From positions 13,293-77,292 of the forward strand of contig JBBSVN010000001.1 in assembly GCA_038046765.1 (NCBI GenBank): a stretch of 64,000 bases of DNA, written 5' to 3'. Positions 4,389-41,512 of this stretch are shown here, in pieces. The position numbers and the translations under genes are program-made. Position 1 is the stretch's first letter, and every line of letters starts with the position of its first letter. The DNA comes from Candidatus Micrarchaeota archaeon. GTDB lineage: Archaea > Micrarchaeota > Micrarchaeia > Anstonellales > Bilamarchaeaceae. Below the pieces are notes generated by a model. That model saw only the letters and a list, made by a program, of their open reading frames with translations. It searched no databases and had not been told where the DNA came from.

Positions 4389-5729
4389 TTATCTATATAC
4401 CGCATAACAATTTGTCCAGAGTCCTTTTTCTTTTACATACGCTATAAGCTTTTTGTGCTCTGTTTCGGTCATTCTTGGTTTTAATAAATCATTTAGTATA
4501 ACTCCATCAAATTCCATCCAAAGGTCGCTTAAAGGTTGTACTTCGTTACCATTTCCTATTAATTTAAACCCCTTTACGAATGCATCAATCGTATCTTTCA
4601 TTGCTTTAACAACAGTTTCTTCTGGTATTCCCTTAGAAAAAAATCCTTTTCTTATACTTAGTTCCAGGATTTGACCCCTAATAAGTTCAATTCCTGCTTT
4701 AATTGATTGTGCATAAGCTGTAGCAGGTAAAGTTATTAGTTTATCTAACTTCTGGCCAACTCGCATATTTTCCGGCCATGCTTTTTCTGCATCTTTTGCC
4801 ATTTGTTTTCCTTGATCCATTAATTTTGGATCAAATAATTTTTCGAATGGTTTGCCTTCGTGTTCTAATATTACTGATCTTTGAAACATTATTCTAGTAA
4901 TATTTTCTATTGCGTCACTACCTAAATAAGATAAAAGAGCATTATCTGAAATTAAATTAAAACCATCTATTTGGGTTGTTATTGGTACTAAGCTACCTGG
5001 GATCATGTCTACTTCTCCTGAACCACTCGCTCTAAAAGCAAGTTCAAGTTTTAAGTTCATAGGACTTACTATAAAAAAGTTGTCCCTATCTCCATTCAAA
5101 ATTACTGTTGCTGGCATATTCGCTGTCTGGTTACCAATTTCATATATGTTCGCTGCATAAGCCTCTCTCCTAAGTGCTCGTAATATCGCAGTTTGTAATA
5201 CTGTAAGTTCTGTTACTGGAAAATGTATGGGGGTATATTGTCCGATTTCTCCAAAATTTCTATCTGAAACAGGTAAATTTCTTTTAGGATCCACTAAATC
5301 TCTTGCAGTCATTGGTCCTAAGTATTCCTCTCTTGTCGCATTCTCACTGTTATTCACAAATAGGGTAAAATCCTCTCGTCCATAAAGTTTATCTGTATTC
5401 AATATTGCTTGTGCGATTACCCATTCTTGTGCAGTTACTTGTATTGGGTTAATCAAAATTCTAGGTTTAAGTAGATCTGTTACTAGTTTTAGTTCGGTTT
5501 CAAAGTTTCCTTTTGCTATCGCGTTTATATCTCTTGCAATTCTCCCAATCTTATCTAGTTCTGCTGAACTAAATGGCCCGTCTTTTTTCATTTCTCGTTC
5601 GCGTAATCTGTTCGCAATTACTTTGAAATCTTCTATGCTAAATTCTCTAGCTGCATTAAATGAGCATCTAACATTAACTTTGTGAATATTTCCGCAAGGT
5701 GTTGTTTGGGTTTGGGCGAGTCTGATCAT
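4389..5729 (-). CDS. hypothetical soluble protein (446 aa), no recognised domain
   Basis: Long uninterrupted ORF with normal AT-rich codon usage. No TM segments and no motif I can assign. Confidence 0.6.
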   Translation of the reverse strand: MIRLAQTQTTPCGNIHKVNVRCSFNAAREFSIEDFKVIANRLREREMKKDGPFSSAELDKIGRIARDINAIAKGNFETELKLVTDLLKPRILINPIQVTAQEWVIAQAILNTDKLYGREDFTLFVNNSENATREEYLGPMTARDLVDPKRNLPVSDRNFGEIGQYTPIHFPVTELTVLQTAILRALRREAYAANIYEIGNQTANMPATVILNGDRDNFFIVSPMNLKLELAFRASGSGEVDMIPGSLVPITTQIDGFNLISDNALLSYLGSDAIENITRIMFQRSVILEHEGKPFEKLFDPKLMDQGKQMAKDAEKAWPENMRVGQKLDKLITLPATAYAQSIKAGIELIRGQILELSIRKGFFSKGIPEETVVKAMKDTIDAFVKGFKLIGNGNEVQPLSDLWMEFDGVILNDLLKPRMTETEHKKLIAYVKEKGLWTNCYAVYR

Positions 5730-5830
5730 ACTATAATTGTGTCAAAAAGTCTTTATAAATGTATTCTTTTTAACTTAGTTTTGCTAATTCGATTGTTACT
5801 ATTAAATATTCTCCTGTCAAATTACTATTT

Positions 5831-6472
5831 ATGAATCCTAATCAATTAGTTAAACTGTTATTGCCATTGTTTCTTATTCCGCTGACACTGTACTCAGTTT
5901 CATTATTCGGTCATGATGCGGGAAATGCAGTAATCGGAATCGCGTTCTTTATTGCAGTTGTAAAATTTGCGAACGAAAGCGAACGTAAATACATGATTAT
6001 TCTAGCTGTTTTTGCAAGCATATTTGAGAGCGTAAACGTAATTAGCGGAGGATATAAATACATCGGAGCGCCTTTAGTCCCTCTTTGGGTTGGTTTAGGT
6101 TGGGGTATTTTAGGATTATATTTAGTTAAAAATGTTGAAACTTTCAAAAGTATAAATAATAAAAATGCGTATATTCTATCAGCTATTTTCTTTTCTGCAG
6201 TGTGGGTTCTAACTGGCGCAAGCATTCCTTCGCTTGTTTTCTTAGGAGTCGCTATTTCAACTACTTATGTTCTTAGTTTATCCTCCAAATTCCCCGCATC
6301 ATTTTTCTTATTTACTGGAGTTATGGGGGTCGTAATCGAGTTCTTCGGAACTTCGGTTGGAGTTTGGAAATATTTCTTAAACGGTTTACCAATTGACCCG
6401 CCTTTACTCGCTTTAAGCATGGCATATTGTTCGGTTATCGCGTTTGGGATTTGGTTAAGTCGGATTGACTAA
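5831..6472 (+). CDS. polytopic membrane protein (about 6 TM)
   Basis: 213 aa, almost entirely hydrophobic helices. No family assigned. Confidence 0.6.
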   Translation: MNPNQLVKLLLPLFLIPLTLYSVSLFGHDAGNAVIGIAFFIAVVKFANESERKYMIILAVFASIFESVNVISGGYKYIGAPLVPLWVGLGWGILGLYLVKNVETFKSINNKNAYILSAIFFSAVWVLTGASIPSLVFLGVAISTTYVLSLSSKFPASFFLFTGVMGVVIEFFGTSVGVWKYFLNGLPIDPPLLALSMAYCSVIAFGIWLSRID

Positions 6473-6485
6473 ATTTATTTAAACT

Positions 6486-7259
6486 CTAACTGGATACGTT
6501 ATTTAGTTTTTGCCATTCTTCTTTAGTAAACCAAGCTACAACTACAAGTCCCCTGGATGAGTACTCACTTAAATTTAATCCATCTCCTGAGAAACAGATC
6601 GCAGATTTTATTTTGTTCTCTTTATATCCGATTTCAAAAGTTCCATTTAGCTGAGAATTTATAAATTCTGTGTGGTTTGTTGTGTGAAATGGAAATGTTT
6701 TATTTGATAAAAAATTTGTGTTGTCTGCACTTACATTTACTTCTAAAATACAATCCGAACAAACTTCTCCATTCGTTTCTTTTATTATATATCTACAGTT
6801 ACTAGAATTGTCGACAAGAATTTCTAAAAATACCGTTACATTGGTCGATACACAACTTGGTTTTAATGCACTAGAAAAATAAAAACTTTTATTTCTTATT
6901 TCACCAGCGCTTATTTTATCTGAACTCCAATTTAGTAAAAATGTTGAAGTCTCTCTACCAATTGTTAGTTTAGAATTAATCTGACTATTAGCAACATTGT
7001 AATCTCTTTCCAGACAGGAAAACTTATACTCTGTATATACCCTATCGAAATTTTTGTTTCCTGTATTCGCTAACGTAACTGGAATTCCATTATCTTTTGG
7101 ATTATCCGAAATATCTATCTCAATTTTAGGGTTAGGAATAAGGTTTGGTACATTCAAAGTAATTCCTAAAAAAGCTAAAAATGCCAAAACAGTAATAATT
7201 TTATTTAACAGTGATTGTTGTCTCCATGACTGTTTTAAACTTGCAATTAATTTTGTCAT
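6486..7259 (-). CDS. N-terminally anchored extracellular protein, many N-x-S/T sequons
   Basis: One N-terminal TM (IITVLAFLAFLGITL), then a Cys- and Asn-containing ectodomain. Confidence 0.55.
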   Translation of the reverse strand: MTKLIASLKQSWRQQSLLNKIITVLAFLAFLGITLNVPNLIPNPKIEIDISDNPKDNGIPVTLANTGNKNFDRVYTEYKFSCLERDYNVANSQINSKLTIGRETSTFLLNWSSDKISAGEIRNKSFYFSSALKPSCVSTNVTVFLEILVDNSSNCRYIIKETNGEVCSDCILEVNVSADNTNFLSNKTFPFHTTNHTEFINSQLNGTFEIGYKENKIKSAICFSGDGLNLSEYSSRGLVVVAWFTKEEWQKLNNVSS

Positions 7260-7297: not shown

Positions 7298-8320
7298 CTA
7301 ATTCAATATCGCCGCTATCCCGCCAATTCCCTTAAGTCTTTCTCCTGCATCGTTTTGCGCAGTAAATATAATCAGATAAGCACCCTTATGATCCGCATAA
7401 TCAACTAATTTTTCAACTTCCTTTGAATCTCGAAGCAACTCATCTAAAACAAGAAGCTTATTGACTTTGCCAGATTCCACAGCAGCTTTTACTCTCGGGA
7501 TTCCATAAACAGCTAATCCATTTTCCTTCCCTTCTTCTTCCATGATTTTTTCAATGTACTTTAATTCTTTTTGAACACGCTGTTCACCAATAATTTTTTC
7601 TACCGCGCCTCCTTTAAATAATTCGAGTATTCCAGAGCGCTCAGCATAACTACAAAATTCAAAAATAATTTTCTTAAGTAATTTTGGATTTTTATTTTCT
7701 AAAAATGTTTTTAAATTGTCCTTTGTAAATCCAGGCCCAGCTACTAAGACAGTTTCCTCACTTCGGTCTATTTCCCGAGTTATTCTTGTATAATAATCCT
7801 CTGTCTTAGCTTCAAACTTTTTAGGTTCATCACGTTTGCGTGCGTCATTGCTAAATTCTACGCCGTATTCAATTCCGTACCCTCTAACCGTAGCCACAAG
7901 CGCGTGTTCTTCATCAAGTACGATTATTCTTAATTTTGGTTTTTTGGTTTCTTTTTCTGCCTGTTCTATTCTTTTAATTTGGTAAGCTTTCCATTCTTTT
8001 ATTATCTGGATTCTCGTTCCTATTTCAACATCTAAAGTGTGATATTTCCCCATTTGGATATACTCTTCAGGGCTTCCACGAATTATTTTTCCTAGTAGCC
8101 TAAGCCGGTTAAGCGTTTTAGAAAATTCGATGTTTTCAATTTTTATCGCAATGTGCATTGGTTTTTTTTCTTCTTTAGTGCCTATTTTGACAGTTCTAAA
8201 AGTGCCTGATTCTACTTCGTCACCTACGCTTAATGACCTTTCAATGTGCCAGATATCTTCAAGGTTTTCTGTTCCTAGTATAAGTAAATTGGCTTTTCTG
8301 TCGAATTTGAATATTTTCAT
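7298..8320 (-). CDS. pelA: Pelota (Dom34 homologue, mRNA surveillance factor)
   Basis: MKIFKFDRKANLLILGTENLEDIWHIERSL..GD N-terminus and eRF1-like C-terminal domains ending GIGGIAAILN. I prefer ATG at 8320 over the track start at 8350. Confidence 0.85.
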   Translation of the reverse strand: MKIFKFDRKANLLILGTENLEDIWHIERSLSVGDEVESGTFRTVKIGTKEEKKPMHIAIKIENIEFSKTLNRLRLLGKIIRGSPEEYIQMGKYHTLDVEIGTRIQIIKEWKAYQIKRIEQAEKETKKPKLRIIVLDEEHALVATVRGYGIEYGVEFSNDARKRDEPKKFEAKTEDYYTRITREIDRSEETVLVAGPGFTKDNLKTFLENKNPKLLKKIIFEFCSYAERSGILELFKGGAVEKIIGEQRVQKELKYIEKIMEEEGKENGLAVYGIPRVKAAVESGKVNKLLVLDELLRDSKEVEKLVDYADHKGAYLIIFTAQNDAGERLKGIGGIAAILN

Positions 8321-9605: not shown

Positions 9606-9711
9606 ACTGCACAAAAGTTTATAAATTTGTGCATTACGATATACAAAGTGCACAAAAGTAGTTAAAATTTGGGTATAAAGCATAACCTTTTAAACACTTT
9701 TTGACACATAT

Positions 9712-11646
9712 TTGGATATGACAAGAAGGCTCACTCCAAGTAGTGGCAATGTAATACCTATAGAAGCAGCTAGAACTAGAGCTTTTGCCGTCAAAACTGA
9801 CCAAGATCACAAATCTTTAGGGATAGTTACTGGAGAAAGGGGAGGTTATGAACTAAAAAAATCTATTTTCAAGAACAATGGCACAACTGAATTATTTTTA
9901 GCAACTGATTTAAAAACTAATAAAGAGGTAATCGTAAAAAGAGTAACTCTTAAGGCAGAAGATTCAACCTTTAAACTTGCCCCAAGGGAATTTGACATTA
10001 TAAACTATCTAGATCATCCAAACGTGGTTAAAGCGATTGATCAGACTATGACATCGAAGGAAAAAGACGGAAACCAGATAACCGAGTATTTCTTAGTAAC
10101 AGAAAAAGTCGAAGGCAAAAATCTAAGGGAACATAGCGCTTTTGGCACTAATTTTTCAGAAGAAGAAAAAATAGAAATTATAACACAGATTTTGCAGGCA
10201 CTAGAATATCTTCATGATAGTGGCGTAATACACAGAGATGTAAAACCAGAAAACATAATGGTTCATAAAACAGAAGATGGAAAAATAAATGTAACTTTGG
10301 TTGATTTTGGCGTTACGCTTACTGCAGTTAGTACTGGTTCAACCGCGCTTCTTCCAATATTTAGTAAGGGTTTTACTGCTCCAGAAGTTTTAGCATGTGC
10401 ATCTGATGTTGATGGCAGAGCGGATATCTATTCTACTTCAGCAGTTTTGTCCTGGATTTTTACCGGTTTAGATGGAACAGATATGCAAACTAAATTAAGG
10501 ACCAAAGAAGAAATTGACTGCATTGATGGTCAACTTTTAAGTATAATCAAAAAGGGATTAAAGGCAGACCCTGAAGAAAGATATCAAACTGCAAAGGAAA
10601 TGAAGGAAGCTTTGGTTAGTGAGATAGAAGAAGGGGCAGATATTGCCGTAGTTGAACCCATTGACAAAGTGAATAAAATTTATCGAGAACTTAAAGCAAG
10701 AAAAATGGAATTAAGAACTAAGTATGCACAATTGGATCGTTCATTTAAGGAAAGCATGAGAAAAACTTTGAAATATGTTATCCCGTCATTTGTAGTTTCT
10801 GTAGCTAGTCTTGGTTATATTTTGACTGAACAACCAAAAGGACTGGCAGCTTTGCTATCTAGTATTGGAGTCTTCTTAGGTTTAACTGTTGCTGGTTTAG
10901 TGTTGCATTTTAAGTCCAAGGCTAACGCGGATAAACTTAAAAATCTGGATGACCTAGAATTACAAATCGGTGATCTTGCATCAGATTTAGAAGAAATTGA
11001 AACAATTCGGGATTTGGATTCTAAGCGTGATCTGTTTTTAGAAGCTAGATCAGAATCTTTGCTTAGGCTTAAGTCTTCAAAAAAAGCATTAAAAGAAGCA
11101 AAAGTCAAAACACAAGACACGGATGTTGTCGACTGGTTCCTTCTTGACCTTACAAGTAAAGAAATCCAAGTCCATAAAAACTTAAACTTAGAACAAACTC
11201 TTGCATTAGAAAGACTAGATTTTGTAATTTTACCAAATAGTGTTATTGATGAGATTTTACAAGATGGTGCGTTAAGAGAAAAATACACAAAGCTAGGTTT
11301 ATTCCCCTGCAGGACTGGAACATGGGTAGAACTTGATGGAGAAAATTGTATAATAAAACAGGATGGAAAAAGTAAGAAAACAAAACTGCATATACAAGAT
11401 GGCTGGTATAAAAAAGATAACCTCGGCATTCCTTCTGGCGAACCTACAAATGAAAATGATCAAGATGCAAGATTTTTGTGGAGAACTAAAAAATATGTTG
11501 GCCCTTTGGTCCGTGGCTTCGACTGGAACGACTTCAACGGGCAGGATGTCGGTGCCCTCAGAAGGCTCGACGGCGGTTACGGGGTGGCGTGCATTTCTCG
11601 AGCCAAATACGAAGAAATTTTGGCTCGATCTATTCAAAATGAATAA
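9712..11646 (+). CDS. Ser/Thr protein kinase, two TM helices, coiled coil, C-terminal variable-looking module
   Basis: Hanks-type motifs VIVKRV (Lys), HRDVKPENIM, DFG and TAPE. Two TM helices lie around aa 355-400. The C-terminal about 130 aa is paralogous to ORF 39954-40829. Confidence 0.85.
   Translation: MDMTRRLTPSSGNVIPIEAARTRAFAVKTDQDHKSLGIVTGERGGYELKKSIFKNNGTTELFLATDLKTNKEVIVKRVTLKAEDSTFKLAPREFDIINYLDHPNVVKAIDQTMTSKEKDGNQITEYFLVTEKVEGKNLREHSAFGTNFSEEEKIEIITQILQALEYLHDSGVIHRDVKPENIMVHKTEDGKINVTLVDFGVTLTAVSTGSTALLPIFSKGFTAPEVLACASDVDGRADIYSTSAVLSWIFTGLDGTDMQTKLRTKEEIDCIDGQLLSIIKKGLKADPEERYQTAKEMKEALVSEIEEGADIAVVEPIDKVNKIYRELKARKMELRTKYAQLDRSFKESMRKTLKYVIPSFVVSVASLGYILTEQPKGLAALLSSIGVFLGLTVAGLVLHFKSKANADKLKNLDDLELQIGDLASDLEEIETIRDLDSKRDLFLEARSESLLRLKSSKKALKEAKVKTQDTDVVDWFLLDLTSKEIQVHKNLNLEQTLALERLDFVILPNSVIDEILQDGALREKYTKLGLFPCRTGTWVELDGENCIIKQDGKSKKTKLHIQDGWYKKDNLGIPSGEPTNENDQDARFLWRTKKYVGPLVRGFDWNDFNGQDVGALRRLDGGYGVACISRAKYEEILARSIQNE
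11500..11592 (+). other. local G+C-rich, A-poor, NNC-codon patch inside the kinase 3' end (DGR VR-like)
   Basis: Hand count over 11500-11604: about 64 percent G+C and 15 A in 105 nt. 17 of 31 codons end in C and 1 ends in A, against AT-rich flanks. Confidence 0.6.
11599..11627 (+). other. 9-bp hairpin immediately 3' of the G+C-rich patch
   Basis: CGAGCCAAA (11599-11607) pairs perfectly with TTTGGCTCG (11619-11627), with an 11-nt loop. Confidence 0.6.
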
Positions 11647-11708
11647 TTAATTTTGAATATCGCGCGAAACTTATGAGAAATTATTCGTAGATAAAATCTA
11701 AAGTTTGT

Positions 11709-12356: not shown

Positions 12357-15300
12357 ATGCGTAAGGCATTTTTCTTATTTCTCTTAATATTTGCGATAGC
12401 TCAGCTTGGTTTTTCCACTCCTTATTCTTTAACATCATTGCCTTGGGACGATTACGAATGGAAAAAAGCAAACCCATATATTTTGTATCCTGGCTCCACC
12501 GAAATCTTTGATGGCAATACTATGCACCAAAGTCTACAGTCGCTTAATCTTTCGAACCCAATTTATGATGGTATAACCGATAGTGCCATAAAAACAAATA
12601 TGTTATCTGCAAGGTCATCCTACCAAAAAACCCTTGAACAAAAGGATCGATGTAATAGTTACATGACTATAAATCTGGTTTCTTATGGCTATTTTTCTCT
12701 TGTTTCAGGTAATCTTCTTATCGATCTTTTTAGTGCATTTAATTCAAAAAATTCAAAAGACATAATCTTTGTTAGTGGCGTTAAAGGATCAGAATATCTA
12801 TCTCTTATTTATCAAAATACTGACTGCATGGCTTATTCAAGCAACTGGAAATCCATAATGACTTCTGCTACAAACAGTGTTTTATTAAGTCAAAGTCTAA
12901 ACAATCAAATTGACAAAAACCTAAATTTGTCACTGCAAAAGCTATATTTTTCAGGAGTGTGTGAAGAATACTACTCTGGAATAGAAAGAGTAGCCTGCGA
13001 TGAGATTGAGCGCAATATACAATCCTATAATAAGTTAAATAAAAATCTTGATATTGATTTGTCGGCATTTAACGATGATATCTCCAAAAACAAACCCGTT
13101 ACTTCCAAATTTGTTCCAATTATGACCTCCTTATGGGATAAGGACGGTGTAATAATCCTTGGTTCAGATATTCTTAATCAGTCTGATTCAACCCTAAATT
13201 CTGCGATATCTGTCCTTAATTTCAAAAAATTAGAACTAGAAAATGAATCCAAAAAAGTCGATTTAGCTATAACTGATGGAGAAAAGCAAAAATTATACCT
13301 TATCACAGAAGGTCTAGATTTTGACGGGGTTATTGGTTCTAATACAGATACGATCGCACAAAAATTTTCTATTTTAAAAAACAAACAAAAAAGAGCTAAG
13401 GATTTACAAAACAATGCCTCAATTCCAATATCTAAAAAATCTTATCTTAAGGATTCTCTAAATAACATCAAAATTGCTAAAGATATCGTTAGTTCAAATA
13501 GCGAAGAATCTATTTTGCTATTGCTGGATGCACAAAACGTAGTTGAAAATAATAAAAAAATTACAGAAAAAGAGTTTGCAGATTTAGAAGAATCCTATCA
13601 AAGTAAAACTCCAAGTGTAGACATTGCAAAGAAATTTTCCGCTATAAGTAAACTTTTAAACCAAACAAAACCGGAAGATCCTTACGGAACACAGTTCACA
13701 GATTATGCTGAAGCACGATCTCAAATAAAGGTATTAAAAGAACAAATCAATGGGTACGATCCTGTTACGCAAAAGCAGGCAGATCTTTTATTTTTAGATG
13801 TTGAAAAGTTAATTAAAAATGCCAAAAGCGATGGGTTAGACACTATTTCCGAGGATTTAAAGTTTAATCTAATTAAGGACTCAAGGTCCAAAACCTTATC
13901 TTTGGAAGTTCTAGGTGATATTCGATCATCTATCCTAAAAAAGGCAGCAAATACATACTCTGATTTACAATCTCAAAGTGATCGGTTACACTTCCTAGTA
14001 GACGGCGTAGCTGATTTATATTACTATCAATCGAAACTTCTGGATGCTGAAAACGGTCTTTTCAAAAATGGCAATTTAATCGTTGATGGAACATCTATCG
14101 GTCGTTTATCTGGTCTCAAAAATACCTACGATCGTCTGGAACTAGATCTATCAAAGTACAAATCAATTACCTTATCCGCTAAACTTGTACCTACAATTAT
14201 TTTCTACACTAATGGCATATTACTTGATGAATCCGTTCCTTACTCTTTGGCAGTGAATATCGATAATCCGTTTGGACTGGATGCAGAAAATGTAAAAGTT
14301 TCAGTTACTATTCCCCAAGGACTTATGTTTACCAAATCGGACATTAAGCAAGGAAGCGAAAATATAATCGATATTACCTTAAACAAAAACCAGCTTGAAC
14401 TTAATCTAAAGAATATATCTAAATATTCCAATTATCAGGTCGTTTTTGATAAATCAGCTATTCTTGCACGTTCACTTTCAACTAAAAAATTCGTTTATGG
14501 TACTGGGGCAGGTGGCGCAATTTTAGATAAAAACACTACAATCATGCTAGATACTGATGGAAGTTTGATCCTAAACTCTTCTTCAACTTATATTGTTGAT
14601 GGCAATGAGTACCTAGGAGAAGTTCTTTCTGCCGGAAGCCACGTATTAACTAGCCAGATCAAGCTGTTTAACGCTTATAATCTGAGTTACGAAAATTATC
14701 AAACAAGCAGGTTAGGGTTAAACCAAGTTGTTTCTTATGACGAGGTTATTAAATCCGATGTCGACCTTGATAAAGTTCCTGTTTTCATTAGTGACAAAAA
14801 TGATCAAAAAATCTCGCGTGTTAATGTACTTGCAATAACTAGTCACAAAACTTTGAATAAAGGTATTTTAAGTAACGGTATATACAAAACCGAAGTTTAT
14901 GAAATTAAAAAACTCACGAATGCGACACTAAAAATAAGCTATATTCTAGAAAATGTCAGTGATTACATAAATGAAAAAATAATCCTCCTAAAAGGAGTCA
15001 CTAATAATAGTCAAATTCTTTCTTTAGTAAATGCTGCACAAAGTGATTTGCAAAATAATGATACTTCAAATGCCGTTATAAATATTCAAAAAGCACAAAA
15101 TGAGCTAGATCGGTTGAACTCTATTTTAGTGCAAAAACAATCAGAATACGATTCTTTAAGAGAAGCTGTTGACGCGCAATATATTCGTGTTAGTGCTGCA
15201 CTTTCAAACCTCGATCAAAAAAGTGAATTCTATTCCTCCTTCCTAAAACGTAAAAATGAACTTTCAAAAACACTTTCAAATTCCGATGAACTTAAACAAA

Positions 15301-16238
15301 ATCAAATTGAAAAAGCAATCTCTACTTTAAAAGAAGTTGATAATTCTTGGGAAAAGACCACTACTAATTTAGCTAGCAAGAAAATTTTCCTAGATTACAA
15401 TTCGATTAAATCCAAAATACTTGCGCATGGCTTTGAAAGTGATCTAATCGAAGAATTCAATTCATTTGAAATCGCGCTCGGAGATTTTGGCAGTTCGAAT
15501 AATTTAGATTCTTTTGTTACTCTAGCAAATTCATTTGCACAGGTTTCTAAAGTTGGATCAAACTACGAATCTAATTACACTAATGGTCTTATAGAAGGCT
15601 CAACTACTATAAACATCCTAAAAAATCAGTTGAAAAATGATTTGAACTTATACATTTTGGAATATAAAAATGCTAAAGGAAGTAGCTATGAAAAATTATT
15701 CCCAGTTGACCCCTCTTCTTTTGACAAAATTATTAAAGATGCGGAGTTAATTATCTCTAAAAAAGGCTCGCTTAAAGAACTTTCTTCGAAGAATAGTGAA
15801 TTACAACTTAGTGCATTAAAAATAAAATCCAGTTTGACTGATCTTAAAAAAATCTCCGAGGATCAGGTCTCTAGTCTTAAAACTCTATTTGCTGCTAAAA
15901 AAGATTCTGTTGATTCTAGCCAAGCCGTAAAAATACAAAAGAATATTGATCGGGCTAGTGCGTTTATTGATACTAAACAGTACGTTGATGCGCTTAAACT
16001 TTCACAAAATACCTTACTTGATCTAACCAAAACTAATCCTAAAGACCAGACCCAGTTGATTATTCTTTCTGCCTTAACAGTAATTGTTCTTGGTGCGATT
16101 GCCTTTTACATCATAAAACAGAAAAAAGGGGAAGATAAAGGCAATAGCAAGGTATTTAGAAAGCTGGAAAAAGTTGAAGAAGTTGCAGATAATAATTCTC
16201 CATCAACTTCTCAAAGCTCTGATGAAAAATATTTATGA
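12357..16238 (+). CDS. giant cell-surface protein (S-layer-like or adhesin-like), C-terminal TM anchor
   Basis: 1293 aa. N-terminal signal peptide, Asn/Ser-rich ectodomain with long coiled regions, C-terminal TM LIILSALTVIVLGAIAFYII followed by a basic tail. Confidence 0.7.
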   Translation: MRKAFFLFLLIFAIAQLGFSTPYSLTSLPWDDYEWKKANPYILYPGSTEIFDGNTMHQSLQSLNLSNPIYDGITDSAIKTNMLSARSSYQKTLEQKDRCNSYMTINLVSYGYFSLVSGNLLIDLFSAFNSKNSKDIIFVSGVKGSEYLSLIYQNTDCMAYSSNWKSIMTSATNSVLLSQSLNNQIDKNLNLSLQKLYFSGVCEEYYSGIERVACDEIERNIQSYNKLNKNLDIDLSAFNDDISKNKPVTSKFVPIMTSLWDKDGVIILGSDILNQSDSTLNSAISVLNFKKLELENESKKVDLAITDGEKQKLYLITEGLDFDGVIGSNTDTIAQKFSILKNKQKRAKDLQNNASIPISKKSYLKDSLNNIKIAKDIVSSNSEESILLLLDAQNVVENNKKITEKEFADLEESYQSKTPSVDIAKKFSAISKLLNQTKPEDPYGTQFTDYAEARSQIKVLKEQINGYDPVTQKQADLLFLDVEKLIKNAKSDGLDTISEDLKFNLIKDSRSKTLSLEVLGDIRSSILKKAANTYSDLQSQSDRLHFLVDGVADLYYYQSKLLDAENGLFKNGNLIVDGTSIGRLSGLKNTYDRLELDLSKYKSITLSAKLVPTIIFYTNGILLDESVPYSLAVNIDNPFGLDAENVKVSVTIPQGLMFTKSDIKQGSENIIDITLNKNQLELNLKNISKYSNYQVVFDKSAILARSLSTKKFVYGTGAGGAILDKNTTIMLDTDGSLILNSSSTYIVDGNEYLGEVLSAGSHVLTSQIKLFNAYNLSYENYQTSRLGLNQVVSYDEVIKSDVDLDKVPVFISDKNDQKISRVNVLAITSHKTLNKGILSNGIYKTEVYEIKKLTNATLKISYILENVSDYINEKIILLKGVTNNSQILSLVNAAQSDLQNNDTSNAVINIQKAQNELDRLNSILVQKQSEYDSLREAVDAQYIRVSAALSNLDQKSEFYSSFLKRKNELSKTLSNSDELKQNQIEKAISTLKEVDNSWEKTTTNLASKKIFLDYNSIKSKILAHGFESDLIEEFNSFEIALGDFGSSNNLDSFVTLANSFAQVSKVGSNYESNYTNGLIEGSTTINILKNQLKNDLNLYILEYKNAKGSSYEKLFPVDPSSFDKIIKDAELIISKKGSLKELSSKNSELQLSALKIKSSLTDLKKISEDQVSSLKTLFAAKKDSVDSSQAVKIQKNIDRASAFIDTKQYVDALKLSQNTLLDLTKTNPKDQTQLIILSALTVIVLGAIAFYIIKQKKGEDKGNSKVFRKLEKVEEVADNNSPSTSQSSDEKYL

Positions 16239-39953: not shown

Positions 39954-40829
39954 ATGAGCACAACAATTCAACAACCAACTCAAAGAATAAGAGGCCCAAA
40001 GTTAGAAGTGTTCATATCAAGATTATATGGTCTTCCTTTTGATGAAGAATTAGCTAGAGCAGATAAAGATAATAGAGTTATTGTTTCTAGTAAAAGACTA
40101 AGTTCAGCCCTAATTGGAAGCGATGAATGGAAAGCAATCAAAAAAGCTTTTGCTTGCTGGTCTGGAACTATGACTGCTTATGTTGAACCAAATGTAGAAC
40201 TTGGGCAAGCTGCTAGAAGACTTAGCGATCTTGGAGATTTTCCTAAGTTAAGTAAAAATCAGTACGAACATGCTATTGTTTATACTGACCCCCAAACAGG
40301 AAATGATTGGATCTTTCCAATTCCAGAAAAATATTTAAGAGTAAAAAATGGAATTTTAGTTATTGAGCACCCTGATTATGGTTTAGATAGAGAAGGAACA
40401 AATAGATTAGTTTTACCAGTATCAGTTGAAAGAGTTGATTTAGTTGAAGGTTTTCCAGTTCGAAATGGTTGGTATTTACCAGATGCGATTCATGGAATAC
40501 CTCAAACAAGTCAAGTAGATTATTCAACTAAAGCTAGACACTTGTGGAGAGTTGATAAAAGAGTTGGTCCGGTTAGGCTCGGCTACGACGACATGGGCGG
40601 CATCGACGACATTAACGGGCGGTATGTCGACTTTGACGATAGGCCGTCCAATGGTTACGGGCTGGTAACAGAGGCCAGCGAAGCTGGCACGCCGGCTACA
40701 AAAGACGAAATTAAAACTAGTAGACAATCTAGCGTCATTCAGTTAAATGAAGGAGACTCCGAATTAATAATTCGAGGAAGCGATGCAAAAATTGAAGCAG
40801 CTTTAAGACTTTTAGAAAGTTTGAGATAA
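39954..40829 (+). CDS. stand-alone protein carrying the same C-terminal module as the kinase (variable-looking)
   Basis: Shares FACWSGT / NGWY..D..GIP / AR.LWR....VGP..G.D with kinase residues FPCRTGT / DGWY..D..GIP / ARFLWR....VGP..GFD. ATG at 39954 is preferred. Confidence 0.6.
   Translation: MSTTIQQPTQRIRGPKLEVFISRLYGLPFDEELARADKDNRVIVSSKRLSSALIGSDEWKAIKKAFACWSGTMTAYVEPNVELGQAARRLSDLGDFPKLSKNQYEHAIVYTDPQTGNDWIFPIPEKYLRVKNGILVIEHPDYGLDREGTNRLVLPVSVERVDLVEGFPVRNGWYLPDAIHGIPQTSQVDYSTKARHLWRVDKRVGPVRLGYDDMGGIDDINGRYVDFDDRPSNGYGLVTEASEAGTPATKDEIKTSRQSSVIQLNEGDSELIIRGSDAKIEAALRLLESLR
40566..40699 (+). other. second local G+C-rich, NNC-codon patch with embedded hairpin (DGR VR-like)
   Basis: 19 of 45 codons end in C. 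Hairpin GCCAGC-gaa-GCTGGC at 40674-40688. The flanks return to AT-rich composition. Confidence 0.6.
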
Positions 40830-40837
40830 AATTAATT

Positions 40838-41227
40838 TTAAATTTTTCTTAATGTCTCCTCTGGTTTAAGTATTATTATTTCCCTAAATTTCTCTAAGTC
40901 CAAGAGATGATGATCATACGAAACAATAAAATCAGCATTAGCTTCTACTGCCCCTTCTAAGACTTTGTCATCATCCGAATCTACTTTAATAAATTCTATT
41001 TTCTCTTTTGGAAAAACTATTATTAAAATCTTTATAAGTTCCTTTATTCTCTCATCCTTCTCTTCTTCATTATGTTCGAAATCTCTTTTTAAAATTTCCC
41101 CATATTCTTCCAAGATTTCTGGACTTGTAAATCCTTCGATTTGTTTTTCTTGTATTTTAAGAAGTAATTCATAAGCGACGCCCTTAGAGATCGTACCTGA
41201 AATTAGTACGTTTGTATCAAGAAAAAT
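40838..41227 (-). CDS. PIN-domain toxin (PIN_3 type), apparent ATT start or TAG read-through
   Basis: The track ORF starts at TTG 41113. In-frame upstream codons encode TTKIFLDTNVLISGTISKG, the canonical PIN N-terminus. They begin directly after the antitoxin TAG (41237-41239) in the same frame, with no ATG/GTG/TTG in between. Confidence 0.65.
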   Translation of the reverse strand: MFLDTNVLISGTISKGVAYELLLKIQEKQIEGFTSPEILEEYGEILKRDFEHNEEEKDERIKELIKILIIVFPKEKIEFIKVDSDDDKVLEGAVEANADFIVSYDHHLLDLEKFREIIILKPEETLRKI

Positions 41228-41236
41228 CTTAGTAGT

Positions 41237-41512
41237 CTAAGGAACGCCGCGCCTCTTGTGAACTATCTTTACTACGTCTTCTTGTTTTATTCCCAAAGAT
41301 TTGGCTTTTTTACTGCTCTCTTCTACAAGTTTGTCCCATGAAGATTTAAAATCTTCTTTACTCGGTTTGTAAACTTTTTTTAGCATAATTGTATCTCCTG
41401 TACCAAATACTGCGAATACTGTACCTTTTCCCGCTTTAATCTCGTTACGAATGTCCAATGGTATTACTATTTGCCCTTTTGATGTCATATGTGTTATTTC
41501 GACTTCCGACAT
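41237..41512 (-). CDS. AbrB/MazE-type antitoxin
   Basis: MTSKGQIVIPLDIRNEIKAGKGTVF is the SpoVT-AbrB signature. Confidence 0.75.
   Translation of the reverse strand: MSEVEITHMTSKGQIVIPLDIRNEIKAGKGTVFAVFGTGDTIMLKKVYKPSKEDFKSSWDKLVEESSKKAKSLGIKQEDVVKIVHKRRGVP

Follow-up and report, generated by a model that had tools for sequence, protein, structure and literature searches.

A probable diversity-generating retroelement variable region at the 3' end of a Ser/Thr kinase gene of a Micrarchaeota archaeon

To our knowledge, diversity-generating retroelements (DGRs) form the only prokaryotic system for targeted protein hypervariation. Here a 64,000-nt stretch of DNA from a Candidatus Micrarchaeota archaeon was analysed (assembly GCA_038046765.1, contig JBBSVN010000001.1, positions 13,293 to 77,292 of the forward strand; the whole stretch is called the window), in which a Ser/Thr kinase gene ends with a G+C-rich patch resembling the variable region (VR) of a DGR target. 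Analysis of the patch, its homologues and the DGRs of related genomes indicated that the patch (11500-11594) is probably the VR of a remote target gene, which does not adjoin the template repeat (TR) and the reverse transcriptase (RT) of its DGR. The coordinates of the features are given in Table 1.

The kinase gene and its product

A Pfam scan of the kinase product showed a PF00069 Pkinase match at residues 61-292 (E = 7e-35, 121 bits, cut-off 31.7). The catalytic motifs HRD (172), DFG (196) and APE (221) are present, and the VAIK-type lysine is found in VKR at position 73. By these sequence features the protein is assigned to the Hanks-type Ser/Thr kinases. An identical product of 642 aa is recorded in NCBI assembly GCA_964365985.1 and in ENA ERZ1292620. 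Two hydrophobic helices were called downstream of the kinase domain with Kyte-Doolittle windows of 19 residues at a threshold of at least 1.6. Application of the positive-inside rule to this predicted membrane hairpin places the kinase domain and the C-terminal module both on the cytoplasmic side. The C-terminus of the kinase is homologous to the product of a second gene in the window, ORF291 (BLASTP E = 2e-08), and the two have the motifs GWY..D..GIP, AR.LWR, VGP, GYG and GVA in common.

A second Ser/Thr kinase of 575 aa is encoded in the same genome ~15 kb upstream of the window start (locus L001, 5863-7590, minus strand). Its middle part is hydrophobic, and its C-terminal domain is of another kind and lacks a VR-like patch, showing that the kinase scaffold is present here both with and without the DGR module.

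Table 1. Positions of the features in the window
Feature	Position	Strand	Description
Ser/Thr kinase gene	9718..11646	+	642 aa from ATG 9718; listed open reading frame (ORF) opens at TTG 9712; VR module C-terminal
Predicted membrane hairpin	10774..10911	+	hydrophobic helices aa 353-370 / 376-398, loop EQPKG, K/R-rich flanks
C-terminal VR-bearing module	11119..11643	+	aa 470-644; compact paralogue of the ORF291 family domain
Probable DGR variable region	11500..11594	+	composition and codon outlier; orthologues scrambled here only; in register with proven TR/VR pairs
IMH-like 3' boundary GGGGTGGCGTGCAT	11581..11594	+	unchanged in kinase, P0001 and P0163/P0002
Hairpin	11598..11628	+	10-bp stem TCGAGCCAAA / TTTGGCTCGA, 11-nt loop; 4 nt past the boundary motif
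ORF291 (P0004)	39954..40829	+	291 aa; standalone member of the DGR target family; no transmembrane segment, no Pfam match
Second VR	40566..40670	+	length and scaffold as in proven VRs (e.g. L012); boundary variant GGGCTGGT at 40659-40666
Hairpin GCCAGC-GAA-GCTGGC	40674..40688	+	after the second VR; same as the L006 hairpin; equivalent GCCCCC-GAA-GGGGGC in others

Composition, codons and boundary of the kinase patch

The highest 100-nt G+C peak of the whole 64 kb is the kinase patch. The VR has 65.6% G+C and 14% A, and the block 11500-11604 has 63.8% G+C with 15 A, compared with a window average of 33.9% G+C. The module around the patch shows an ordinary AT-rich composition. In 11500-11592, 17 of the 31 codons have C in the third position and one has A, whereas 11% of the remaining 594 kinase codons end in C and 41% in A. 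The C-ending codons were ranked over 18,100 in-frame windows of 31 codons from all ORFs of at least 150 aa in the window (mean 4.0, s.d. 2.0), and the patch takes the first rank, ~6.5 s.d. above the mean. These values reproduce the hand count of the original prediction, which was made from the letters of the window and gave about 64% G+C, 15 A, 17 of 31 C-ending codons and a single A-ending codon. The patch has the codon signature of AAY-templated mutagenesis, consisting of NNC or NNY codons, few adenines and no stops.

The VR starts with an adenine-free scaffold (11500-11517, GGCCCTTTGGTCCGTGGC), continues with an NNC-type core (11518-11580) and closes with a boundary (11581-11594) 52 nt short of the kinase stop codon. 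The boundary resembles the initiation of mutagenic homing (IMH) element of DGRs. It has GGGGTGGC in common with the proven VRs of relatives described below, while the TRs have GAAATGAC or GGAATGAC there. The hairpin that follows was first described as a perfect stem of 9 bp (11599-11607 / 11619-11627) and is in fact one pair longer, with perfect arms at 11598-11607 and 11619-11628. Folded as DNA, it reaches -9.8 kcal/mol (z = -2.5), a stability matched by 3 of 200 shuffled sequences. Perfect hairpins of at least 9 bp are not rare in the window (10 found vs. 5.6 expected from shuffles), and the weight of the kinase hairpin thus lies in its position 4 nt after the patch. At the equivalent position, the relatives show a hairpin with a GC-rich stem of 6 bp and a loop of 3-4 nt, indicating that the hairpin position is conserved across the family; in many of their loci the hairpin lies ~15 nt past the start of the GGGGTGGC motif. 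The patch is closed by a G+C-rich, IMH-like boundary unlike the TR end and then by a hairpin, both with a putative role in homing.

Selection on RNA or DNA structure, or simply a peptide rich in Gly, Asp and Arg, is a scarcely credible explanation of the block. The hairpin after the patch is significantly stable and the encoded peptide is rich in G, D and R. However, the patch itself folds worse than shuffled sequences (z = +1.46; 192 of 200 shuffles at least as good), which speaks against the RNA-structure alternative raised in the original prediction. Scans of the window for tRNA and Rfam families gave no matches, and the orthologous patches are scrambled. The codons of the patch switch synonymously to GGC, GAC, TTC, AAC and TAC, compared with A- or T-ending codons elsewhere in the gene, a switch that amino-acid content cannot explain.

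Directly after the VR hairpin lies a second perfect 10-bp inverted repeat (11631-11640 / 11650-11659, TATTCAAAAT / ATTTTGAATA) with a 9-nt loop. It spans the kinase stop codon at 11644-11646 and may be a transcript-end or regulatory element.

A second patch and a hypervariable protein family

The second-highest G+C peak of the window (40595-40694, 61%) lies inside ORF291. The patch of this gene, which was absent from the original prediction, has 61% G+C and 16 C-ending codons, taking the second rank among the codon windows. The two patches are homologous and can be aligned at the DNA level.

Homologues of the kinase C-terminal module are few, with just three found among 5.8 billion proteins. 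The orthologues and paralogues of the module (P0001 and P0002/P0163) are 58-90% identical outside the patch. Their sequences are conserved up to DAR.L.R, are scrambled over ~35 residues and are conserved again from GVAC. At the DNA level, each has a local G+C peak (59-60%) with the invariant GGGGTGGCGTGCAT at its 3' edge. The kinase protein forms a singleton cluster, and no VR variants of the kinase were found by cluster look-up.

The ORF291 family is larger. Its 36 homologues come almost exclusively from Micrarchaeota and, when aligned, display the same variable block between RVGPVAR and GVAVEA, in which the fixed scaffold R..V.L..RPS.G.GVA (R, V, L, RPS, G) is retained. The variable residues are mostly Y, D, N, G, F, S, C, V and I, the set reachable from AAY codons. 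A profile search with the family gave 966 clusters at 50% identity, 323 of which were found at E ≤ 1e-30, and the matched clusters are almost all standalone proteins of 200-300 aa without a Pfam model. Judged from these alignments, hypervariability among close homologues is limited to the VR, with fixed scaffold positions interspersed.

Complete DGR cassettes in relatives

To place the patches in a genomic context, 46 loci of the ORF291 family were taken from GTDB genomes. An RT-like ORF with the motifs [IL]GxxxSQ and YxDD, the homologues of which carry PF00078, lies just downstream of the family gene in six loci (L008, L012, L023, L026, L040 and L049). An imperfect copy of the in-gene block, the TR, was found 400-500 nt downstream of the block, also in six loci. 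The mismatches between the two copies fall almost entirely at TR adenines (22/23 in L008, 18/20 in L011, 11/11 in L012, 15/16 in L023, 20/20 in L026 and 14/15 in L040), and the VR side carries A at none of the mismatches in the six pairs. As read from these mismatches, the repeat pairs of the six relatives show the relation between TR and VR that defines a DGR. The cassette of L008 looks intact and combines a VR of 77% G+C with a genome of 36% G+C, providing a precedent in an AT-rich host.

The TRs of the relatives also match VRs at a distance. The TR of L026 differs from the VR of L021, on another contig of the same metagenome-assembled genome (MAG), at 14 positions, all of them TR adenines; for the TR of L040 and L043, likewise on another contig, the count is 6/6. 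These matches show that the family uses remote targets.

The RT genes of these genomes contain a homopolymeric G or C run of 9-13 nt, located at a single conserved site immediately ahead of the IGYALKAD motif (L008 ~11561-11573, L012 ~7455-7463, L023 ~11546-11555, L049 ~1422-1431 and, in L040, within the RT ORF 5479-6585). The RT frame is broken at the run in four of the six loci and is intact in L040. Among the 95 motif-bearing RT homologues, 20 are C-terminal halves that begin at the homopolymer site, and 11 of the 75 full-length homologues have a GGG or PPP run there. No link of homopolymeric tracts to DGRs was found in the collection of papers that was searched. The tract may be a phase-variable switch of the RT, turned on and off by slipped-strand events, or a homopolymer assembly error.

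Relation of the window patches to the cassettes

The window patches were aligned by MAFFT with five TR/VR pairs of the relatives. The kinase patch matches the TR consensus in 40 of 56 non-A columns (71%) and the ORF291 patch in 42 of 57, with a length equal to that of the L012 VR. The proven VRs match in 49-53 of 56-57 columns (86-95%), scored against the consensus rather than against their own TR. The runs that the kinase VR has in common with the TRs are AAC GAC ... AAC.GG CAG.AT GTC ... AGG C.. ... GGT ... GGGGTGGC. The in-register alignment with TR/VR cassettes, together with the common GGGGTGGC boundary, indicates that the kinase patch is a DGR VR by descent, beyond compositional likeness. 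Thus, a DGR origin of the patch is very likely. The original prediction of a DGR target VR agrees with this protein and DNA homology to Micrarchaeota VRs that have an adjacent TR, adenine-specific mismatches and a DGR-type RT.

A segment moved without any DGR, by recombination or gene conversion between paralogues or from a G+C-rich donor, is a very improbable source of the patch. The abrupt change of composition is as in a transferred segment, and one sequence suggests exchange: P0160, encoded on an ENA contig of 14,410 nt, is identical to P0005 in the N-terminal ~210 residues and to ORF291 from the VR onwards. Either the assembly has joined two genes within the common ARHLWRVDKRVGPVRLG stretch, giving a chimera, or the paralogues have truly exchanged their VR-bearing ends, and the structure of P0160 indicates that VR-containing ends may be exchanged in this way. 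However, exchange between paralogues accounts for the spread of the block and not for an A-poor, NNC-coded stretch scrambled between fixed bases. The flanking module has the ordinary AT-rich composition, and the DNA register with the TRs of the relatives and the common boundary tie the patch to a DGR cassette. Simple transfer, an alternative named in the original prediction, leaves this register homology unexplained.

TR, RT and other VRs in this genome

The VR module is carried by several genes of this genome. The ENA contig with the exact kinase protein also bears P0001, ~20 kb upstream, and GCA_964365985.1 contains the kinase, ORF291 and P0163. The locus tags AABX38_00025, _02085, _03085 and _07825 (MEK698...) put P0001, P0005, P0163 and P0007 in one MAG. 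The co-occurrence in assemblies and the locus tags show that at least six genes of this genome bear the module.

Several results weigh against the kinase patch as the VR of a remote DGR target. Blastn (word size 7), a repeat search and an A-compatibility slide uncovered no TR, either in the window or across ~110 kb of this genome. In the slide, five VRs were moved over 132 kb of same-genome DNA (~110 kb non-redundant) and identical-or-A positions were counted; it yielded poly-A noise only, and the positive controls from the relatives gave 87/87 and 93/93. No RT was detected in the window by a six-frame scan for YxDD and IGxxxSQ and Pfam scans of the neighbouring genes, nor in the same-genome loci L001, L003-L005, L052 and L053. 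Among the best 120 RT homologues, none was tied to this genome, and the candidates P0102 and P0109 belong to another sample. The VRs are identical across all independent assemblies seen (the kinase on several contigs; P0006 = P0004; P0163 = P0002), and no population-level variation was seen among the assembled consensus sequences. The five readable VRs of this genome differ in length and scaffold, and one TR could thus not serve all of them; several would be needed. The kinase VR matches only 71% of the TR-consensus columns compared with 86-95% for the proven VRs, the consensus being from distant genomes, and several of its codons have a third position other than C (GGT, AGA, TGG). Finally, no direct TR partner was seen anywhere for the subfamily of the kinase and P0001.

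Two pattern scans of sequence collections were also negative. The scaffold pattern gave no matches in viral and genome contig collections, the VR of this genome included, and a TR-compatible degenerate pattern gave none in viral and metagenome contig collections. Because its own VR has no match in the GTDB, IMG/VR and JGI collections, the genome itself is not among them.

These results raise the possibility that the kinase VR is an orphan, written by a DGR in the past and left as a frozen variant under ordinary mutation after its cognate TR and RT were lost or inactivated. This explanation has a little less than an even chance. Neither TR nor RT lies near any of the five paralogues with readable surroundings (in the window, L001, L052 and L053, the loci of P0163 and P0161 included). 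The constancy of the VRs across assemblies, their mutual incompatibility in scaffold and length and the third positions other than C in the kinase VR point the same way. One VR of the genome is visibly eroded in part: that of P0007/P0161 (L053 7495-7596) has ~46% G+C, contains GAA, GAG, CAG and TTA codons and ends with the boundary GGAATGGT, which resembles the TR form GGAATGAC more closely. It is followed by neither a TR nor an RT, the adjacent downstream gene coding for an unrelated protein. The broken RT frames in four of six relatives suggest that RT inactivation is common in the clade.

However, the kinase VR is the cleanest outlier in a genome of 34% G+C, with its 65.6% G+C, 14% A and one A-ending codon. 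AT-biased drift would be expected to erode it as in P0007, in comparison with which it looks fresh. Its boundary motif and hairpin are intact, the scanned DNA covers ~10% of the genome, and, as the relatives prove, it is normal in this family for remote targets to lie on other contigs. In favour of recent or current homing stand the very clean composition of the kinase VR against its AT-rich background, its unbroken boundary and the hairpin; in favour of an orphan stand the failure to find a TR and the constancy of the VRs, leaving the balance about even. The chance that a matching TR and RT are still present and active in this genome is put at about even. The original prediction had placed them outside the window. 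None was found inside the window, and the family uses remote targets on other contigs; the pair was recovered in the relatives but not in the ~110 kb of this genome.

Structure of the VR scaffold

The AlphaFold2 model of ORF291 is confident (pLDDT 86.5, pTM 0.80) and shows the VR within an all-beta region, while that of the kinase VR module has a pLDDT of 73.7. The ORF291 model had no Foldseek match at E ≤ 0.001 in PDB or BFVD, in a whole-protein search that may miss a subdomain match. AvpA (5ioo), an archaeal C-type lectin DGR protein, appeared at rank 43 with E = 3 and TM-scores of 0.28/0.37. No structural match was found for the kinase-module model either. A C-type-lectin-like fold, for which the original prediction proposed to test the module, was thus not recovered in either model.

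Sequence searches gave a similar result. The kinase C-terminus and ORF291 have no Pfam match and no informative PDB sequence match, and the FGE-sulfatase, DUF1566 and lectin families of Pfam showed no match in 35 family members even at E up to 1. A C-type lectin fold of the VR scaffold is unsupported by Foldseek (PDB, BFVD), the PDB profile search and the permissive Pfam scan. Neither P0001 nor ORF291 has a transmembrane segment.

Proposed mechanism and comparison with known DGRs

The features of the locus can be placed in the following scheme, in which the kinase patch is the VR of a remote DGR target. The DGR RT would copy the TR RNA to cDNA with misincorporation at template adenines, as shown in the relatives and presumably here, and the cDNA would then take the place of the VR. 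In this way, AAC-type TR codons would become NNC codons, generating an A-poor, C3-rich and G+C-rich cassette between fixed scaffold bases. The GGGGTGGC boundary (GAAATGAC in the TR) and the downstream hairpin are the likely cis signals for one-way homing and target marking, following the paradigm of the Bordetella phage. The VR encodes ~21 residues of the variable core (~31 in the whole VR) in a small, mostly beta module, which appears tethered through the two-helix membrane hairpin to the Hanks-type Ser/Thr kinase. Since the kinase and the module are both predicted to be cytoplasmic, diversification would retune the binding or sensing of the kinase.

The DGR of Bordetella phage BPP-1 diversifies a VR in mtd, which is followed by an IMH and a downstream hairpin or cruciform. 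Like this DGR, the kinase locus has a VR of ~100 nt that occupies the gene's 3' end, a boundary rich in G+C that is not the same in VR and TR, a hairpin a few nt downstream and adenine-directed variation in AAY codons. In contrast, BPP-1 diversifies a receptor-binding protein of the phage that adopts the C-type lectin fold, with the TR and RT adjacent. The hairpins also differ: that of the kinase has an 11-nt loop and an AT-containing stem, whereas that of BPP-1 has a short GC stem and a 4-nt loop. The BPP-1 DGR was studied by Guo et al. 2011, cited here via PMC8144416.

The closest parallel to the locus is found in the DGR variable proteins of cyanobacteria, in which the VR domain either stands by itself or follows a Ser/Thr kinase domain to which it is grafted, with many remote paralogues (Vallota-Eastman et al. 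2020, PMC7517822); the kinase-fused cyanobacterial targets mentioned in the original prediction are described there. In both cases the VR lies at the extreme 3' end, the module is found as a protein of its own as well as in fusion with a Hanks-type kinase, the paralogues are scattered over the genome at a distance from the RT, and the targets seem to be intracellular signalling proteins rather than surface proteins. Unlike the cyanobacterial systems, the host here is a DPANN archaeon with a small genome, the VR scaffold has no sequence or fold match to their C-type lectin domain, and the kinase fusion seems to be rare (three homologues of the fused module in 5.8 billion proteins).

DGRs of DPANN archaea and the Candidate Phyla Radiation (CPR) are known from Paul et al. 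2015 and 2017, cited here via PMC6349945 and PMC10907252, and from the AvpA structure 5ioo. As in the present system, the hosts are small-genome archaea, in which one genome often holds several targets or loci; the cassette order (target-TR-RT) and the adenine-specific mismatches likewise agree with those of the Micrarchaeota relatives. The published DPANN targets are described as C-type lectin proteins thought to serve cell-cell attachment, and the proteins varied by DPANN DGRs are thought to be those of the surface or of attachment (PMC6349945, PMC10907252). In contrast, the present module has a predicted cytoplasmic location and no match to 5ioo, and one paralogue carries it in fusion with a kinase. 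The CPR/DPANN DGR clade is reported not to be associated with signalling or conflict domains (PMC10907252).

In multicellular bacteria, the putative antigen sensors that DGRs diversify also include protein kinase fusions (Dore et al. 2024, PMC10907252). As in these sensors, a C-terminal VR domain is joined here to a signalling or effector domain, in this case a protein kinase, and by analogy the architecture suggests a diversified sensor coupled to an intracellular output. Unlike the present protein, the sensors of Dore et al. are bacterial, with RT clades 5A-5E, C-type lectin VRs and often STAND/NACHT domains; none of these was seen here.

In large surveys, the annotated VR regions are systematically C-type lectin folds, and contig-based metagenome surveys of DGRs miss remote targets by design (PMC8144416). 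The present locus points to a large unannotated family of Micrarchaeota targets whose confident model does not match that fold, and to seemingly cytoplasmic DGR targets, one of them fused to a Hanks-type kinase. The mechanism is known; the scaffold, the host and the kinase fusion are unusual. If the reading of the patch as a remote DGR target is true, the range of structures that tolerate DGR variation would be wider, and tiny symbiotic archaea may retune intracellular signalling, beyond their surfaces, through retroelement-driven mutagenesis. A practical lesson of the locus is that sequence composition by itself can reveal remote targets.

A broader proposal is tentative and, on present evidence, rather doubtful. 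Micrarchaeota DGRs might diversify an undescribed, mostly beta scaffold other than the C-type lectin fold (~1,000 clusters at 50% identity, no Pfam model) whose members are intracellular. The copy on the membrane-anchored Ser/Thr kinase would then turn that enzyme into a hypervariable sensor or substrate-selector inside the cell of a DPANN archaeon, equivalent to the 'antigen sensors' that DGRs diversify in bacteria, and, linked to this, the RTs of the clade might be switched by the G/C tract.

Neighbouring genes and repeats

Directly downstream of ORF291 are a PIN-domain gene and a small gene on the minus strand (40838-41113 and 41237-41512), the former with PF13470 in the matching locus L005. 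The two look like a toxin-antitoxin pair, in which the small gene is maybe the antitoxin.

A 12-mer, TGTGTCAAAAAG, occurs at 5738-5749 (plus strand) and 9697-9708 (minus strand), inside a 45-nt repeat with 76% complementarity (5738-5782 / 9664-9708). The two copies lie upstream of ORF 5831-6472 and of the ATPase gene (AAA_14/DUF4143) divergent from the kinase, respectively. If one mismatch is tolerated, the 12-mer has three matches in comparison with 0.89 expected, a number reached in 4 of 100 shuffles, which is weak evidence for a common promoter or operator element.

Adjoining the kinase locus, a gene at 12357-16238 (plus strand) encodes a protein of 1293 aa with a hydrophobic N-terminus, a C-terminal hydrophobic anchor and no recorded Pfam match, which is probably a large surface protein.

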